Positions 2,723 to 52,707 of a stretch of 64,000 nt of DNA are shown piece by piece. The first letter of the stretch is position 1, and each line of letters begins with the position of its first letter. This DNA is from an uncultured bacterium (GTDB taxonomy: Bacteria; Patescibacteriota; Minisyncoccia; Phycocordibacterales; DATDWN01). Both the position numbers and the translations under genes were made by a program. The stretch covers positions 7,964 through 71,963 of the forward strand of contig CAIOTC010000003.1 of assembly GCA_903861205.1 (NCBI GenBank). Reading direction: 5' to 3'. The notes beneath the pieces are model-generated. The model was not told the origin of the DNA, did no database searches, and was given only the letters and a program-made list of their open reading frames with translations.

Positions 2723-3256
2723 ATGCAAACCATCAAAGAAAAAACAAAAGAATCGTACGGCGCGCTCAAGGCTGATTTCGGCTATAAAAACATCATGCAA
2801 TCGCCGAAAATCGAAAAGGTTATTGTTTCGGCCGGTGTCGGATCTTTCAAGGACAAGAAAAAAATCGATCTGGCTTTTGATCGACTTTCCAAAATCACCG
2901 GCCAGCGTCCCGTCAAAAAAGGCGCCAAGCAATCGGTGGCTTCTTTCAAAGTTCGCGAAGGTGACGTTGTAGGTTTGCAGGTTACTTTGCGAGGTCAGCG
3001 AATGTACGATTTTCTTGATCGCTTGATAAACATCTCACTTCCACGAACAAAAGACTTCCGCGGTATTTCTCCAACAGGCATCGACGAAATGGGCAACTAC
3101 ACCCTCGGTATCAAAGAGAACACTATTTTCCCGGAATCGTCCGATGAGGAACTGAAAGACGTTTTTGGTCTGGCTGTCACTGTCGTCACCAGCATTCGCG
3201 ACAAAAAAGAAACAAGAGCGTTTTTGACACACCTCGGATTTCCGTTCAAGAAGTAA
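2723..3256 (+). CDS. rplE: 50S ribosomal protein L5
   Basis: 177 aa, L5 signature; follows L24. Confidence 0.95.
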   Translation: MQTIKEKTKESYGALKADFGYKNIMQSPKIEKVIVSAGVGSFKDKKKIDLAFDRLSKITGQRPVKKGAKQSVASFKVREGDVVGLQVTLRGQRMYDFLDRLINISLPRTKDFRGISPTGIDEMGNYTLGIKENTIFPESSDEELKDVFGLAVTVVTSIRDKKETRAFLTHLGFPFKK

Positions 3257-3348: not shown

Positions 3349-3398
3349 ATACGCGACCTTGGCGAAATTATGAAAATTTTTAGTCCGTGGTGACTTAA

Positions 3399-3426
3399 AA
3401 AACCGCTAAACATGGCGGTTTTTGCG
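3399..3426 (+). terminator. Hairpin/terminator T2 (aaaaaccgctaaacatggcggttttt), copy 1
   Basis: Stem aaccgc/gcggtt plus T-run; a near-identical copy lies at 5078-5108. Confidence 0.5.
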
Positions 3427-3455
3427 TATAAGACTTTACTTTTGAACGATAGTTG

Positions 3456-3505: not shown

Positions 3506-4216
3506 TTGGAAGACGAAGAGTATAGGATGTTGGAGTTTGAAATGCTCACAGATCCGTTGTTCAACGTTTTTGTCGGAGTCGTCGCCCTCGGCGCGTTCCT
3601 GGCTTCTCTCTGGATGATTCGAGAGGCTTACCGGACCTCTGTCCGCTATTACCGCGAATTTTTTGTTTGGCGCCCGGTACGACGCCGTGGAGAGGAGATG
3701 GTCCGTCGAGCCAAGTTTTATGTTCAAATTCATGGTCCGCTCGCGGTCCAAAACAAGGCCAAGAAAGGGGTCACGGCGGTTGCGCGTTACGACAAGTTCA
3801 ACGCGAGACTGCTTGAAGTTCTTCGCAGGGCCGCAGGCGCGCGTAATACGGAGCCGATGTGCCAACGGGTGTTTGTAGATGTGGTCCCCACATTCACATT
3901 CGCTGATAACGAAGCGGTTCATTTTCCAGCACACACAGGTCTGAAAAGAGACATTGACGATCTAATGAGCTGGATTGTCGCTAAAATAACGGATATCGGT
4001 AAGGCAGAGGTTGACAAGAGAAGCTATGAAGAGGCAGTTTTGATTCTCGCAGTTCGTGATCAGCGATTACTGATACCGTTTGAGTACGAAGAACCGTTGC
4101 ACACCGTTGAGGGCGAGTTCAAGAAGTTTGGTGGCACAACACTTCAGCAAGCGGAGGAGCAGTTTGTACCTCCTTTTCCCAACACTAGCACGTTTGACAC
4201 CTCCGCGGACGAATAG
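3506..4216 (+). CDS. Hypothetical protein with an N-terminal TM helix; GC-rich cargo gene inside the ribosomal operon
   Basis: 236 aa ORF; GC clearly above its surroundings; own promoter and terminator. Confidence 0.6.
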   Translation: MEDEEYRMLEFEMLTDPLFNVFVGVVALGAFLASLWMIREAYRTSVRYYREFFVWRPVRRRGEEMVRRAKFYVQIHGPLAVQNKAKKGVTAVARYDKFNARLLEVLRRAAGARNTEPMCQRVFVDVVPTFTFADNEAVHFPAHTGLKRDIDDLMSWIVAKITDIGKAEVDKRSYEEAVLILAVRDQRLLIPFEYEEPLHTVEGEFKKFGGTTLQQAEEQFVPPFPNTSTFDTSADE

Positions 4217-4222
4217 AGAACC

Positions 4223-4259
4223 AGCCGGTGGTCCCTCGCGGGGTCGCCGGCTTTTCATT
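4223..4259 (+). terminator. Rho-independent terminator T1 (agccggtggtccc-tcgc-ggggtcgccggct + T-run), copy 1
   Basis: 13-bp stem including G-U pairs, so strand-specific for +; identical copy at 5688-5726. Confidence 0.6.
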
Positions 4260-4352: not shown

Positions 4353-4847
4353 ATGGAGCAAAAACTCAATATAAATAAATATAAAAACGCTCTCGTGTAT
4401 TTGATAGATAAATGTGGAAATGAAAAATTGGGCATCATGAAGCTCAATAAAATTTTCTATTACATGGATTTTATTTCATATCGCGACCGCGGTTTGACTG
4501 TGACTGGCGAAACTTACGTTCATCTTCCAAAAGGACCATTTGCAGATTCTTTGCAAAGTGTGATTTTGCCTCTGGCGGAAAAAGAAAATCTGGTGGAACA
4601 AAAAGAGGATATCAGTGAAAAATTTGGCAAACGAAACAGATTTAAAGCTCTCAAAAAACCAGACATGTCGCTTTTTGATGACTACGAAAAGAAATTGCTG
4701 GAGTACTTGTGCGTGACATTCAAGGATTGGACAACAGATCAAATGGTTGCCCAAACTCACACAGAAGCGCCGTGGGTTTTTTCCAAACCGAGCAAATCTC
4801 TGGATTATAATAATGCTGATGATATAGAATTCTTTGCCAATAATTAA
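4353..4847 (+). CDS. Panacea-domain (DUF4065 / SocA-like antitoxin, phage-associated) protein
   Basis: N-terminal ...GIMKLNKIFYYMDFISYRDRG.TVTGETYVHLPKGPF pattern typical of DUF4065. Confidence 0.55.
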   Translation: MEQKLNINKYKNALVYLIDKCGNEKLGIMKLNKIFYYMDFISYRDRGLTVTGETYVHLPKGPFADSLQSVILPLAEKENLVEQKEDISEKFGKRNRFKALKKPDMSLFDDYEKKLLEYLCVTFKDWTTDQMVAQTHTEAPWVFSKPSKSLDYNNADDIEFFANN

Positions 4848-4859
4848 TTTATTTCCACT

Positions 4860-5081
4860 ATGTCTTGGTCTGTACAGAGAACGGAAAGTTTCGACAAGTG
4901 GTGGAAAAAAGAGGGAATAGAAGATAAAAACTATGAGTATCACGAGCGGGCGCTCACGGAATTTCAAAATATTCCGTTGCCTCATCAGATGCAGAGTTGC
5001 GTATTTAAGAATAGCAGTTTTGAATGCTGGGTTACTCGATTGCCTGACAAAGATCTCGCAAAAGAATTTATGGAAGCTTAA
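4860..5081 (+). CDS. Small hypothetical protein adjacent to the Panacea gene; possible toxin partner
   Basis: 73 aa ORF 12 nt downstream in the same transcription unit; no recognisable family. Confidence 0.35.
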   Translation: MSWSVQRTESFDKWWKKEGIEDKNYEYHERALTEFQNIPLPHQMQSCVFKNSSFECWVTRLPDKDLAKEFMEA

Positions 5082-5108
5082 AAACCGCTCAACATGGCGG
5101 TTTTTACG
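5078..5108 (+). terminator. Hairpin/terminator T2, copy 2 (aaaaaccgctcaacatggcggttttt)
   Basis: Near-identical to 3399-3426. Confidence 0.5.
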
Positions 5109-5116
5109 TGTTTTGA

Positions 5117-5145: not shown

Positions 5146-5225
5146 ATAAGCGAAACATGAATTGGGGCATGTATGGACTCCAATCGCCGTCGGGCGTTAA
5201 ATAGATCATTGAAAGAGGTAGAGAA

Positions 5226-5657
5226 ATGATGGATTGTATTTTGGCAGTGATGATGGCGATTGTCGCTTTCATCACAGGTTGGATTCTGGCCGGCATAAAC
5301 ATCAGACGGCAGAAAAAGACAGACCGGGCGGAACATAGAATCGAAAATACCCAACGCAACATCGGCAACCGCGTTTGCAATGCCTTGAATGATGCGGCGG
5401 ACCAAAACCCAGAAGCTCACTTAAGAGCGAAGACCATCTTCTGTAATGGTGGTGAGGTCTACCGCGTCTACCTGTCTTTTGATTTTAGTGGTGCTGATCT
5501 TCTGCTGGTGGACATCGATCCTCGGCAGTCGGTACCCATCACGGTCTTTTTCAACAAAAGCAGGCTGGAAAAGTATTATGATATCACCGAAGGGGATCTT
5601 GTAAGACTCATCCAGATGCTTCAAGAGTTCGTGGTGAATTACTCGCCCGAACGCTAG
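5226..5657 (+). CDS. Hypothetical protein with an N-terminal TM helix; second GC-rich cargo gene
   Basis: 143 aa; hydrophobic N-terminus; perfect promoter upstream and T1 terminator downstream. Confidence 0.55.
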   Translation: MMDCILAVMMAIVAFITGWILAGINIRRQKKTDRAEHRIENTQRNIGNRVCNALNDAADQNPEAHLRAKTIFCNGGEVYRVYLSFDFSGADLLLVDIDPRQSVPITVFFNKSRLEKYYDITEGDLVRLIQMLQEFVVNYSPER

Positions 5658-5687
5658 AGCAACTGACTTACGCCAGCTCAGTTATTC

Positions 5688-5726
5688 AGCCGGTGGTCCC
5701 TCGCGGGGTCGCCGGCTTTTTTGTGG
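5688..5726 (+). terminator. Rho-independent terminator T1, copy 2
   Basis: Identical 30-nt hairpin to 4223-4252, followed by tttttt. Confidence 0.6.
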
Positions 5727-5758
5727 GTGAAAGTGGCACTAAACAAGAATAAATTCCA

Positions 5759-5994
5759 GAGGTTCGACCTTAATGCCCAATTTCCCAAGGTCGAACCTCG
5801 GATGCGGGTGCAAAGTCACCACTAAACAAAATCTCGTACTGACATCTTTTCGGCAACTCCGCAGTGTCGCGAGCCGGTCTTGTCAACGACCCAGCCTTCG
5901 GGGCTGGGCTCATTGACAAGTCGCGACCGAGGACGGTAACAAACTTTTCGCTGGAAAAGTTTGTGGTGACGAAAAGATGTCAGTACGAGATTTT
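5759..5994 (+). other. Highly structured ~240-nt element (nested long hairpins) at the right boundary of the insertion, upstream of the S14 gene
   Basis: 11-bp hairpin 5759-5769/5789-5799; 25-bp perfect stem 5828-5852/5970-5994 enclosing a 62-nt hairpin 5866-5927 (7+8+7 bp stems, ttcg loop). Confidence 0.5.
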
Positions 5995-6060
5995 GTGTTG
6001 ACTTTTCAAGTCACTTTTGGTAGTCTTACCACAGCTTGAAAAAGCTTCGTTTTTGTAAAT

Positions 6061-6246
6061 ATGGCTAAAACATCTGTAAAAGCACGAGCTCGCAAAACAC
6101 CGAAATTCTCAACTCGGGCTGTTAACCGATGTTTCCGATGCGGACGAAAGCACGCTTTCATGCGAGACTTCGGTCTTTGCAGAATCTGCTTCCGCGAGCT
6201 GGCCAATGAGGGGAAGATTCCGGGGGTTAAGAAATCAAGTTGGTAG
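6061..6246 (+). CDS. rpsN: 30S ribosomal protein S14 type Z (zinc-binding, 61 aa)
   Basis: [48 protein letters not shown]; four Cys. Confidence 0.9.
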
Positions 6247-7497: not shown

Positions 7498-7848
7498 ATG
7501 CAAAATTCAAAATCCAAAACAGAACAGAGAATACGACGCAAGGCGCGAATACGAGCCAAGATTTCGGGCACCAAGGAAATGCCACGACTTTCCGTTTTCA
7601 AATCAAACAGATACATTTCTGCTCAGATTATCGATGACGGATCTTCTGTTACGCTTGCTTCTTCACATTCCAAAACAGCAAAAGGCAAAACGCTTTTGGA
7701 GAAATCAGTTGGCGTGGGAAGCGACATTGCAGCCCAAGCCAAAGCCAAGAAAATTACCAAGGTAGTTTTCGATCGCGGAGGATTCAGATACACGGGGGCG
7801 GTCAAGGCAGTCGCAGAGGGAGCAAGGGAAGGAGGATTAATTTTTTGA
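7498..7848 (+). CDS. rplR: 50S ribosomal protein L18
   Basis: RIRRKARIRAKISGT...PRLSVFKSNRYISAQIIDD. Confidence 0.9.
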   Translation: MQNSKSKTEQRIRRKARIRAKISGTKEMPRLSVFKSNRYISAQIIDDGSSVTLASSHSKTAKGKTLLEKSVGVGSDIAAQAKAKKITKVVFDRGGFRYTGAVKAVAEGAREGGLIF

Positions 7849-7969
7849 TTACAAAAAATAATTTCTAATTTTTAATTTAAAATTTTTAATGAATGTCTAA
7901 ATTTAAAAATTGAATCAATTAAAATTCATTAAAAATTCAAAAATTAAAAATTAAAAATTTTTACAAACA

Positions 7970-8551
7970 ATGGAACCAGAAATACAAAAAGAAATAACAA
8001 CAGAAGCTCCGAAAGTGGACGCCAGTCGTCCTATGGATTTTCGTGGTGGGGAAAGAGGGGGATTTAGAAAAAATACTCGCAAGGGTCCACCTCGTCGCGA
8101 AGCTCGAGTCAAGCCGGAATTCGACCAGAAAATCATTAGCATTCGCCGAGTGACTCGCGTGGTTACCGGAGGACGACGATTCAGCTTTTCCGTCGGTATT
8201 GTTATCGGTGACAGAAAGGGACGCGTTGGTGTCGGCCAAGGCAAAGCGGGGGATACTCCTATCGCCATCGACAAAGCTGTGCGAAACGCCAGAAAAAATA
8301 TGATTACGGTCAAAATGACCAAGAACGGTTCCATTCCGCATGACGTGGAGGCAAAATACTCGGCATCGAGAGTGCATATCATGCGCGCTCCTGGCAAGGG
8401 AATTTTGGCCGGCTCAAGCGTTCGAACAGTTTTGGAATTTGCAGGACTGAAAGAAGTTAGCGCCAAAATATTTTCACGAAGCAAAAATAAAGTGAACAAC
8501 GCACAAGTGGCGATCAAGGCGCTGGGGATGCTGAAAACAGGAAACAAATAA
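7970..8551 (+). CDS. rpsE: 30S ribosomal protein S5
   Basis: RRVTRVVTGGRRFSFSVGIVIGDRKGRVGVGQGKA S5 signature. Confidence 0.95.
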   Translation: MEPEIQKEITTEAPKVDASRPMDFRGGERGGFRKNTRKGPPRREARVKPEFDQKIISIRRVTRVVTGGRRFSFSVGIVIGDRKGRVGVGQGKAGDTPIAIDKAVRNARKNMITVKMTKNGSIPHDVEAKYSASRVHIMRAPGKGILAGSSVRTVLEFAGLKEVSAKIFSRSKNKVNNAQVAIKALGMLKTGNK

Positions 8552-12779: not shown

Positions 12780-12787
12780 TTAGTAAA

Positions 12788-12867
12788 GGAAGCAGCAGCA
12801 TAATAATTTTCCTCGGCTCCGCAGGAGATGGAGGTCGGTCGAGGAAAATTATTATGCTGCTGCTTCC
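12788..12867 (+). terminator. Long perfect hairpin after ndk (28-bp stem)
   Basis: ggaagcagcagcataataattttcctcg and its exact reverse complement, separated by 24 nt. Confidence 0.4.
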
Positions 12868-13227
12868 TTCCTTGCATCTTCATTTCGGCGGAAGTATAAT
12901 CGAGGTAGGGTTACATGATTTTTCTTTCTAAACATTTTTAAGGGAGTCTCATATTTGTGTATTATGGCGAGCGCTTGTCGTTCCGATTGATACATTTGCG
13001 GACACCCACCTAGTATTTTTCTAGGGGAAACTCATGTAGCTCTACTAAAAAACTCCGCTTTGGCGGAATTTTTTAAATTTCCAATTTCCAATTATCAATT
13101 TCCAATGAATGATTCAATTAACCAATTTCCAAAAAATAAAATAGTCCTGTTTGATTTATTGTGGCATTGAAAAATTTATTGGAAATTGGAAATTGATAAT
13201 TGGAAATTGTTGGGGTATTATTACCCA

Positions 13228-26529: not shown

Positions 26530-26743
26530 CCGAAGAACAGGGGCGGCACTATCCTATGGGACGTGTCGCTTTTTCTTTTGAAAAGCAAAATAAAAAATTA
26601 CCACTAAGCAAATTTTGTCGAGCCGACACTTTTACGGCGCATTGCGGAATGCGTGAAGACATGAGCAGGAAGAAAAATCGCAGCAGCGATTTATTCTGGC
26701 GACGGAAAAGTGTTGGGTCGTAAGAAATTTGTGATATCGGTTC

Positions 26744-31945: not shown

Positions 31946-32177
31946 TTTCCAATTTTCAATTTCCAATGAATTTTTCAATTGGACAATTGGCTCATTGAGA
32001 AATTCATTGGAAATTGAAAATTGCTACTTGAAATTTTTTGTGTATAACTTGCATAGTTTTTTGTTTTAACTTGCTGTATAATTTACATGAGTAAAAATAA
32101 TTTAAAATTTAAAAATTTGTCATTCAAAATTCATTTTAAATTTTAAATTCTAAATTTTAAATTAAAAATTTTTTTCC

Positions 32178-37077: not shown

Positions 37078-37197
37078 GGACAAATTTTCAAGTAACAATT
37101 TCCAATTTCCAATGAATTTCTCAATGAACCAATTGTCCAATTGAAGAATTGATTCATTTATTGGAAATTGGAAATTGATAATTATTTTTTATTCATG

Positions 37198-48213: not shown

Positions 48214-48516
48214 ATGATCACTACCGAAGACATCAAACACCTAGCCGAACTTTCACGCATGGAAATTCCGGAAGGGGAAATGGAACATTTGGCCAAGGAA
48301 GTTGACTCTATTTTGGGTTATGTCAGCCAGATTACCGGCGCTACGGGCGACATGTCGCGCGAAGTGCCGGCTCTGCACAATGTTATGCGCGAGGATACGC
48401 CGGAAAACACACCGCGCGAATTTACCGAAAAACTGATTGCTAACGCTCCGTCACACCAGGGTGATTATTTGAAAGTGAAAAAAATTTTGGGAGGAAATAG
48501 TGATGATATAATCTAA
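48214..48516 (+). CDS. gatC: Asp/Glu-tRNA amidotransferase subunit C
   Basis: MITTEDIKHLAELSRMEIPEGE...; precedes gatA. Confidence 0.85.
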   Translation: MITTEDIKHLAELSRMEIPEGEMEHLAKEVDSILGYVSQITGATGDMSREVPALHNVMREDTPENTPREFTEKLIANAPSHQGDYLKVKKILGGNSDDII

Positions 48517-48616
48517 AAGTTAAGAAGTTGAAAAAGTTTAATAAGTTGAATAAGGAAATGCAAGAAACTTATACAACTTATTTAACTAAAGCGAAGCGTA
48601 ACTTATTAAACTTGTA
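48516..48616 (+). repeat. Family-B intergenic element (aagttgaataag...ctaaagcgaagcgtaacttattaaac) abutting the gatA start codon
   Basis: Copies also at ~819-913, 1844-1935 and 2630-2722, each ending at the ATG of rplP, rplN and rplE. Confidence 0.6.
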
Positions 48617-52468: not shown

Positions 52469-52604
52469 ACACGTAATTTGAACACGAAAAGTGGATAATT
52501 CGAGTTGATTTTGACGTTAAAGTATGATAGCATTCGTCCACAGCGGGATAGAGTAGCAGTAACTCGCGGGGCCCATAACCCTGAAACTCACGTGCAAGTC
52601 GTGA

Positions 52605-52661
52605 TCCCGCAACAAGTATGAAAAAACACCCATAATGGGTGTTTTTTCATACTTGTTGCGG
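52605..52661. other. Perfect 26-bp-stem hairpin (cccgcaacaagtatgaaaaaacaccc-ataat-gggtgttttttcatacttgttgcggg)
   Basis: Read directly; lies between the HEPN-like gene and tRNA-Met. Confidence 0.4.
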
Positions 52662-52707
52662 GATAGCGCTTGTTTTTATTCACTTGTTATATTATATTGT
52701 TTGTGCA

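Follow-up and report, generated by a model that had tools for sequence, protein, structure and literature searches.

What is the long nested hairpin that stands just upstream of the S14 gene (rpsN) in this stretch of DNA, and does it serve that gene? The stretch, 64,000 nt of contig CAIOTC010000003.1 from an uncultured bacterium (assembly GCA_903861205.1, positions 7,964 to 71,963), is called the window here and is meant at its full length; the related loci compared with it carry L-numbers (L168, L090, and so on). A preliminary description of the window, made from its letters, had pointed to a super-hairpin between positions 5759 and 5994 and had offered several roles for it, among them a structured noncoding RNA, an RNase III processing site, a mobile-element end or attachment structure, and an insulator. 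Our answer is that the element (5826-5996, + strand) is, with near certainty, one member of a structured family that is selected in a strand-specific manner, and that it is not an S14-specific regulator. As to the nature of the family, we give about an even chance to an undescribed group of dispersed, multi-copy, structured palindromic elements of the Parcubacteria, similar to Rickettsia palindromic elements (RPEs) and to ERIC and Correia repeats.

The first step is to establish how the window copy folds. Covariance model R1 recognizes it as a full-length member (closing helix P1, P2-P3-P4 arm, and P5 hairpin), with a score of 136.8 bits (E 1e-30) on the + strand and 17.4 bits on the - strand. 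P1 closes around a three-way junction that carries a 62-nt arm and an 11-bp hairpin. The 25-bp stem that had been seen at 5828-5852/5970-5994 is present and perfect but falls short of the whole helix, which is 27 bp perfect at 5826-5852/5970-5996, or 30 bp with one G-A mismatch at 5826-5855/5967-5996. In its 5' arm, ACAAAATCTCGTACTGACATCTTTTCGGCA (5826-5855, +), the distal ACAAAATCTCG and the proximal TTTTCGG are common to other members and the middle block is variable; the 3' arm, TGACGAAAAGATGTCAGTACGAGATTTTGT (5967-5996, +), carries the mismatch. The 5' leader AAAGTCACCACTAA (5812-5825, +) contains AAAGTCA, which pairs with 5999-6005 and so extends the helix by 7 bp beyond P1 (5812-5818/5999-6005), and the motif (C)ACCACTrA directly upstream of P1 recurs in one subfamily.

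Within P1, junction strand J1, ACTCCGCAGT (5856-5865, +), holds a near-invariant CCGCAG and is followed by the P2-P3-P4 arm (5866-5927, +). This inner hairpin had been described correctly as 7+8+7 bp with a TTCGG loop: P2 has 7 bp (5866-5872/5921-5927), the conserved bulge GCCGGT occupies 5873-5878, P3 is the 8-bp helix CTTGTCAA/TTGACAAG (5879-5886/5913-5920), and an internal loop, CGA/CTCA, separates it from the 7 bp of P4 (5890-5896/5902-5908). What had been overlooked in the interior is P5 (5939-5964, +), a hairpin of 11 perfect base pairs capped by a GCTG tetraloop with a closing C-G pair, which follows junction strand J2/5, CGAGGACGGTA (5928-5938, +), with its invariant CGAGGA. Because P5 is present, the interior is a three-way junction. 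All of the stems described beforehand thus exist, each at its reported length or longer. The AU-rich P1 stem encloses a structured insert of 111 nt, and the minimum free energy on the + strand is -128.2 kcal/mol versus -72.3 +/- 5.3 in dinucleotide shuffles (z = -10.6); the - strand gives z = -11.7 against such shuffles. A pseudoknot between gtcaccac and gtggtgac had also been proposed. Both segments are there (5815-5822/5963-5970), but the pairing is not kept in other family members, in which CACCAC-bearing leaders coexist with unrelated 3' junction sequences.

Is this fold conserved, or is it a random local palindrome? Exact searches with 20-nt arm sequences gave 0 matches in public genome and metagenome contigs, phage and plasmid collections, searched with the element by blastn, yielded chance matches of 21-26 nt or nothing, and in the window the 25-nt arm occurs only as its own pair, with 0 matches expected by chance. 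The gene preceding the element encodes a 143-aa protein, which we call protein X; contigs with an identical protein X all came from one strain, at 100% identity, and were therefore useless for covariation. Homologues of protein X led to L090 and L094, which have the same architecture after the terminator of gene X and different stem sequences. A blastn search with the core added L039, in the same gap between rplE and rpsN, and L018 and L021, located elsewhere and on the other strand; each of these three has an unrelated, perfect P1 of 29-33 bp. Scanning with the degenerate core pattern TGTCAAYGAC-N10-40-TTGACA-N9-CGAGG then returned at least 120 metagenome loci, with about 90 genuine members among the matches listed, and model R1 retrieved 100 matches, corresponding to 93 distinct sequences. 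Eight pattern matches on viral contigs were rejected as chance, all being one shared 68-nt sequence apparently within coding sequence.

These sequences allow the pairing itself to be examined. In alignment A2 (59 sequences), the RNAalifold consensus comprises 48 pairs, and compensatory double changes are seen in 37. Across the 93 distinct sequences, standard pairs fill 94.2% of cells, compared with 68.5% after shuffling and 34-52% in a control in which partners were slid by 1-3 columns, and the covariation score is 0.604, compared with 0.168 shuffled and at most 0.10 slid; here 39 of the 48 pairs have double changes. All of P1, P2, P4, and P5 covary (in P5, 7 of the 7 modelled pairs), and in P3 the outer two pairs do so. 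Invariant across the family are the junction strands CCGCAG and CGAGGAC, the bulge AGCnUGG, and the P3 sequences CUUGUCAA/UUGACAAG, the invariance of P3 being partly imposed by the search pattern; CCGCAG forms invariant columns in A2 and is found in the shortened variants described below as well. The search for homologues and covariation that the preliminary description had proposed therefore found both conserved pairing and further copies, and its suggestion of a structured noncoding RNA is supported by the abundant compensatory changes in about 90 homologues and by the strand bias to which we now turn.

Transitions should yield G-T and A-C mispairs equally, yet G-U outnumbers A-C by 121:34 overall and by 66:15 in P1, counts that the model-fitted alignment biases slightly toward G-U. 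Such an imbalance points to selection acting on one strand, and it is seen both when the gene reading into the element is sense to it (32:6) and when it is antisense (46:13). Judged from these substitution patterns, the selected entity is most likely a single strand, namely the transcript in the element's own orientation; alternatively, it may be single-stranded DNA.

How is the family distributed? The window alone holds at least three copies: the full-length one, a mini, and a micro. For the truncated forms, we used a second model, R2, whose five-sequence seed includes the window mini copy; that copy (26607-26732, +) scores 100.3 bits with R2, its own sequence being in the seed. It has a ACCACTAA leader just upstream (26600-26607), the distal module AAATTTTGTCGAG/TCGTAAGAAATTTGT, an arm that is cut short, and a P5 hairpin whose loop is AGCA. 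The degenerate micro copy (12782-12873, +) consists of a 28-bp perfect stem whose central region is opened by CTCCGCAGG and whose 3' arm starts with CGAGGA. Across the family, mini forms have an arm reduced to GC-GGGUA-GC, micro forms combine a long stem with a central region opening with CCGCAGG and a 3' arm beginning CGAGGA, and composite forms also occur. With both models, L168 shows five copies within ~6.3 kb of its 13.8-kb locus, in both orientations; L157 has three, L207 and L119 have two each, and 755 kb of GTDB loci contain about 12.

The closing helix is conserved at its ends (ACAAAAUCUCG.../...CGAGAUUUUGU) and at its base (UUUUCGGAG/CUCCGAAAA), and its middle block varies freely. Many members share the conserved distal module AAAUCUCGUCGAG ... 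GAGAAAGAGAUUU, and the outermost 8-11 nt, AAAATCTCG/CGAGATTTT, recur in a subfamily only. The conserved flanks are not alike: (C)ACCACTrA is found on the 5' side and GTC/GTT on the 3' side. Copies at one locus (the five of L168, the three of L157) share their architecture and have unrelated P1 and P5 helices. Orthologous copies persist at the same loci (L095/L202 and L114/L190).

Two pairs of copies deserve a separate remark. The neighbouring L168 copies at 5588-5734 and 7732-7878 have an identical P2-P4 arm and unrelated P1 and P5, and L109 2054-2198 and L188 2584-2732 are near-identical apart from single bases, the tip of P4, and a block of 11 bp that lies mid-P1 and is changed in both arms. 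Block-wise variation of this kind resembles modular replacement or gene conversion rather than gradual drift.

Most copies lie beside housekeeping genes: the neighbours include RelA/SpoT, L25, aminoacyl-tRNA synthetases, RecA, DnaB, GreA, L31, RNase Y, and similar. Clustering of open reading frames (ORFs) within +/-2.5 kb gave no conserved neighbour protein, the top clusters being spurious ORFs across the element, and among 114 neighbours scanned with Pfam nothing was enriched. With respect to the neighbouring genes, the copies are oriented at random (26 sense, 30 antisense, 10 both, 27 none).

One copy is found inside a gene. A mini-class member at L168:2204-2330 lies in frame within an intact gene for an AlkD-like DNA glycosylase (L168:1954-2766; PF08713, E 3e-60). 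The protein has 270 aa, whereas the other 119 homologues among the matches listed have 227-264 aa, mostly ~230-240; the insert accounts for ~38 extra aa in a loop between conserved blocks, where eight aligned homologues (A8) are short. By analogy, this is the hallmark behaviour of RPEs. Ogata et al. are said to have described these, in 2000, as dispersed and diverged hairpin repeats of a reduced genome, with intergenic copies and in-frame, non-disruptive gene insertions and with no identified transposase. As a kind, the present family compares well with them: it is a dispersed, multi-copy, diverged palindrome with intergenic copies and one case of non-disruptive in-frame insertion, and RPEs are of a similar order of size (~100-150 nt). 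In other respects the two part company. There is no sequence relationship, the phylum is different, and this family has only one intragenic copy so far; furthermore, it has a three-way-junction core with invariant junction motifs, a closing helix of 25-45 bp, and a strand-specific tolerance of G-U pairs.

Similar comparisons can be made with other repeats. With ERIC, Correia (NEMIS), and BOX repeats and miniature inverted-repeat transposable elements (MITEs), the family shares imperfect palindromes of 100-250 nt in many copies, located between genes near gene ends in either orientation, as well as size variants and transcripts that would form long hairpins. Correia hairpins are RNase III substrates. 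Unlike ERIC, Correia, and MITEs, however, no near-identical copies are seen within a genome and no target-site duplication was found; the terminal repeats are conserved in part only, and the interior is a covarying, multi-helix, RNA-like fold and not a simple foldback. Repetitive extragenic palindromic (REP) sequences and bacterial interspersed mosaic elements (BIMEs) likewise lie outside genes at their 3' ends, are, like this family, thought to be selected as single-strand hairpins, and may have adjacent inverted copies, as seen at L168 (7732-7878 on the - strand, 7934-8069 on the + strand). REPs, on the other hand, are simple hairpins of 20-40 nt with a conserved 5' tetranucleotide and a REP-associated tyrosine transposase (RAYT), and the present element is 5-8 times larger and branched; no RAYT was seen, though no search aimed at one was made.

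From these comparisons, we suggest that the family would have spread as a DNA element and would now be kept for its fold, or at least be constrained by it. Several observations weigh against a dispersed repeat and should be considered together. No target-site duplication was found, direct repeats being absent from the flanks of 71 members, and the family shows neither a transposase nor near-identical copies within a genome, so that mobility rests on the distribution, the variants, and the single intragenic copy. No positional promoter motif lies upstream of the members and no consistent -35/-10 pair at a fixed distance, so that transcription is inferred solely from the G-U asymmetry. Part of the covariation in perfect stems could have been created by template-switch "palindrome correction" of DNA. 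Conservation of the junction nucleotides across distant genomes exceeds that of known REP, ERIC, and RPE sequences, which hints at a specific molecular partner or activity. Finally, canonical terminators lie at most 80 nt upstream of the element in the sense direction in 10 of 67 members and on its 3' side in the antisense direction in 0 of 67, and this 5'-sided pattern is less readily explained by a passive repeat than by an independent RNA gene that is insulated.

The last two points lead to the explanation that the members are independently transcribed, trans-acting small RNAs. By analogy with 6S, Y, or CsrB-type RNAs, the conserved three-way junction would bind a conserved cellular protein, P1 would either clamp and protect the ends or be a processing stem removed by RNase III, and the variable P1 and P5 may confer specificity. 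Strand-specific selection regardless of the orientation of neighbouring genes would be expected of such RNAs, as would the 5'-side insulation, the invariant junction, the orthologous copies kept in place, and the two L168 copies with a common P2-P4 arm and different P1 and P5. The same reading must contend with the missing promoter motif, with the crowding of up to five copies in both orientations at L168, with degenerate mini and micro forms, and with a copy translated in frame; moreover, no adjacent or co-varying protein gene was found, and Rfam gave no match to 6S, signal recognition particle (SRP), Y RNA, or others. We regard trans-acting small RNAs as a possible but doubtful explanation.

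A wider form of this idea, that the family is a new functional RNA class specific to the Candidate Phyla Radiation (CPR) and not merely a repeat, seems to us unlikely. Two variants are conceivable possibilities: a self-processing or self-propagating, ribozyme-like three-way junction built on the invariant CCGCAG/CGAGGAC strands, and a hairpin precursor whose hypervariable, perfectly paired P1 block would be diced by RNase III into specificity-bearing small RNAs. If a functional RNA were correct, the block swaps of L109/L188 and the shared arms of L168 would reflect programmed diversification.

Why, then, is there a copy in front of rpsN? The window host is a member of the Parcubacteria, with a Paceibacteria/Zambryskibacteria-like genome, and the best GTDB representatives for the window's L5 protein, at 80-82% identity, are all metagenome-assembled genomes (MAGs) of Patescibacteria. 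The region is the S10-spc ribosomal operon, which runs S3, L16, S17, L14, L24, L5, and then S14, S8, L6, L18, S5, L15. Between the L5 gene (rplE, 2723-3256) and the S14 gene (rpsN, 6061-6246), ~2.8 kb of foreign-looking genes form an island, and the element follows the terminator of gene X and precedes a sigma-70-type rpsN promoter, TTGACT-17-TAGTCT (5998-6026, +), which starts 2 nt after P1 and is conserved in L039, L085, L088, and L090.

This location had suggested a link to the S14 gene and its cassette, and its fullest form would be a cis-regulatory leader of rpsN and the distal spc operon, such as an autoregulatory site mimicking the target of a ribosomal protein. In its favour, the element does immediately precede rpsN-rpsH in L039, L090, and the window. 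However, it lies upstream of the rpsN promoter and so is not in the rpsN mRNA. In the rplE-rpsN gap, the element occurs in ~5 lineages, with one copy inverted (L085), and ~70 of the 80 related spc operons are without it there, having either an empty gap or other insertions with ordinary terminators; the family as a whole is mostly unlinked to ribosomal genes. Absence from most related gaps, together with the inverted copy, rules out an rpsN leader, to which we would attach next to no probability, and the proposed tie to S14 is given up with it.

The same position could suit a large, factor-independent, bidirectional terminator or insulator that shields the rpsN promoter from read-through out of the cassettes, a role that we consider improbable for the family. 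The window copy is placed as such a device would be, after a terminator and 2 nt from the rpsN -35 box; many copies lie right beside the stop codon of a gene that reads into them; and the inverted L085 copy directly follows rplE, with a GC-rich base flanked by A and T runs. Of the 47 copies for which gene context was recorded, 14 are in convergent regions, an over-representation, only five are in divergent ones, and the remainder are in tandem (14 co-oriented and 14 anti-oriented). The ends of P1 nevertheless show a T-richness of 23% in sense and 29% in antisense against a background of 21% (69 members), and without U-tract enrichment a general terminator role is not supported. Ordinary short terminators occur throughout the genome, often directly upstream of the element, and other rplE-rpsN insertions rely on them; nor would a terminator need a conserved three-way junction or strand-specific tolerance of G-U. 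At the S14 locus itself, a transcript crossing the element would form a 30-bp duplex, which would be an RNase III-type substrate and a barrier to exonucleases, so that the RNase III site or insulator of the preliminary description is plausible as a local consequence of that duplex.

The island raises another question, as the element could be a recombination or attachment site that acts as folded single-stranded DNA, in the manner of attC or the CTX attP, and captures cassettes. The gap is indeed a hotspot for cassettes, with insertions of 0.6-4.7 kb in ~25 of 80 relatives; the inserted genes have the element at their right edge in L039, L090, L094, and the window; and the strand asymmetry would suit a single-stranded DNA substrate as well. 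Set against this, the three cassettes share a single element and the island has neither an integrase nor a recombinase, most cassette-bearing gaps are without the element, and most elements are elsewhere beside housekeeping genes. Core sites of the GTTRRRY type were not found, the stems are perfect without extrahelical bases, and the cassettes are bounded by reused terminators instead. We consider an attachment site very improbable. The mobile-element end that had been proposed is likewise not borne out: the element is itself a dispersed repeat and not the end of the island, and the search for an attachment structure found no integrase, no target-site duplication, and no one-per-cassette pattern.

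The contents of the island can be given briefly. Its first gene encodes an unknown protein of 236 aa (3506-4216), and its second a SocA/Panacea antitoxin (4353-4847; Pfam E 4e-15, with a weak DarG-like PADLOC match) accompanied by a 73-aa partner ORF with no family match (4860-5081); together, 4353-5081 is probably a toxin-antitoxin pair inside the ribosomal operon. Protein X follows at 5226-5657 and matches nothing in Pfam or PADLOC. Every gene unit of the island comes with a promoter-like site of its own and with a terminator that is reused. That of gene X (5687-5720, +), an intrinsic terminator which separates the gene from the element, is identical to 4222-4255 (34 nt, 100%), and a second reused pair, 3398-3427 and 5080-5109, is 93% identical over 30 nt. 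Both terminator types also flank gene X in L088, L090, and L094. Such shared terminators bounding the cassettes suggest that these are gained by recombination between them.

Across the 80 relatives compared, the rplE-rpsN junction is a variable cassette hotspot of this lineage. About half of them have a gap of 72-200 bp. Genes recorded at the site include the SocA/Panacea pair (window), AbiEii (L088), and homologues of the 236-aa protein (L012, L036, L042). At the hotspot the spc operon is split in two: a terminator follows rplE, and rpsN has a new promoter in front of it. Homologues of protein X, in three clusters, are all located in the rplE-rpsN gap of other Parcubacteria. The 5' untranslated region of gene X (5146-5225) is conserved and has two small hairpins, one of ATTGGGG/CTCCAAT with a loop that varies among lineages and one of CGCC-nnnn-GGCG with an invariant stem. 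Their stem sequences are unchanged across the lineages compared, so that no covariation could be shown for them; on the strength of its conservation, this region is a possible cis-regulatory RNA.

Some further repeats in the window should not be confused with the family. The hairpin at 5759-5799 (+), which had been counted as part of the super-hairpin, is present, with 13 perfect base pairs and not 11 (5759-5771/5787-5799) and a 15-nt loop, but it is separate from the conserved family. A 10-bp direct repeat, CACTAAACAA (5737-5746 and 5820-5829), bounds the 83-bp segment in which this hairpin lies. The segment splits the conserved leader of the element and looks like a small insertion with target duplication into that leader. 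A related hairpin is found in L094 only, where the arms resemble the window arms swapped and the loop orientation is kept. Other long, AT-rich, perfect intergenic hairpins at 37096-37177, 31950-32023, and 52593-52675 receive weak model scores that come from their stems only and are not members. Another AT-rich repeat of ~97 nt, with consensus AGTTGAATAAGTTTAAnAAGTTGAATAAGGAAATGCA...CTTATACAACTTATTAAACTAAAGCGAAGCGTAACTTATTAAACTAC and copies ~90-94% identical in pairwise blastn, occurs at 814-917, 1838-1933, 2625-2720, and 48516-48612; it directly precedes the start codons of L16, L14, and L5, with one further site elsewhere.

Does the element correspond to any system already described? Rfam 15 gave only tmRNA and tRNAs for the whole window at gathering thresholds, spurious miRNA and small RNA matches far below threshold for region 5600-6100 at E<=10, and nothing at the elements of 20 member loci at E<=5. 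Literature searches, including those with conserved sequence strings, returned nothing relevant on the family. As in the RNase III stems of rRNA, 6S RNA, and Y RNA, a long helix closes the ends and drifts in sequence while keeping its pairing, around a conserved structured core of ~110 nt. Unlike 6S and Y RNA, the family occurs in many copies, with degenerate ones among them, lacks an open central bubble, and has no Rfam match.

Individual candidates were considered and rejected as follows. 6S RNA was discarded on the five copies in ~6.3 kb, the lack of an RF00013 match, and a junction predicted to be paired (RNAalifold pairs the CC of CCGCAG with the GG of CGAGG). SRP RNA, 5S rRNA, RNase P, hammerhead, twister, and K-turn, judged by their consensus features, misfit in nucleotides and copy number and have no Rfam match. 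For an intrinsic terminator, the 30-bp AU-rich stem has no U-tract enrichment, and a terminator scan does not call the element. An integron attC does not agree with the ends (ACAAAAT/ATTTTGT followed by GTTGAC), the perfect stems, the single element for three cassettes, or the island ORFs, which have no integrase domain; a retron msr/msd was dismissed with these ORFs showing only the SocA_Panacea domain and no reverse transcriptase, and with no conserved neighbour protein across members. A MITE or foldback transposon would not account for the missing target-site duplication (71 members) or for five L168 and three L157 copies that differ in P1 and P5. The idea of a guide and its target was dropped, the variable P1 blocks matching nothing elsewhere in the window. 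The inverted repeat 3378-3396/5813-5831, considered as the ends of the island, is at chance level (15/19 matches, ~5 such pairs being expected in 2.9 kb) and is absent from L090.

What does this mean for the organism and the family? Genomes of Parcubacteria are ~1 Mb in size and highly streamlined, and to our knowledge almost no noncoding RNA biology has been described for them. Here, an element of 150-250 nt, with at least 90 distinct sequences and a branched fold under strand-specific compensatory evolution, is absent from Rfam and from the literature searched. The family is either a selfish element of a new type, able to persist in minimal genomes much as RPEs persist in Rickettsia, or a class of functional RNA that is new. 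In both cases it provides covariance models with which CPR genomes can be annotated and accounts for contig breaks and for odd "ORFs" in these MAGs, and with its in-frame copy and its cassette hotspot in a ribosomal operon it offers a tractable system for the study of how such elements spread and are tolerated.

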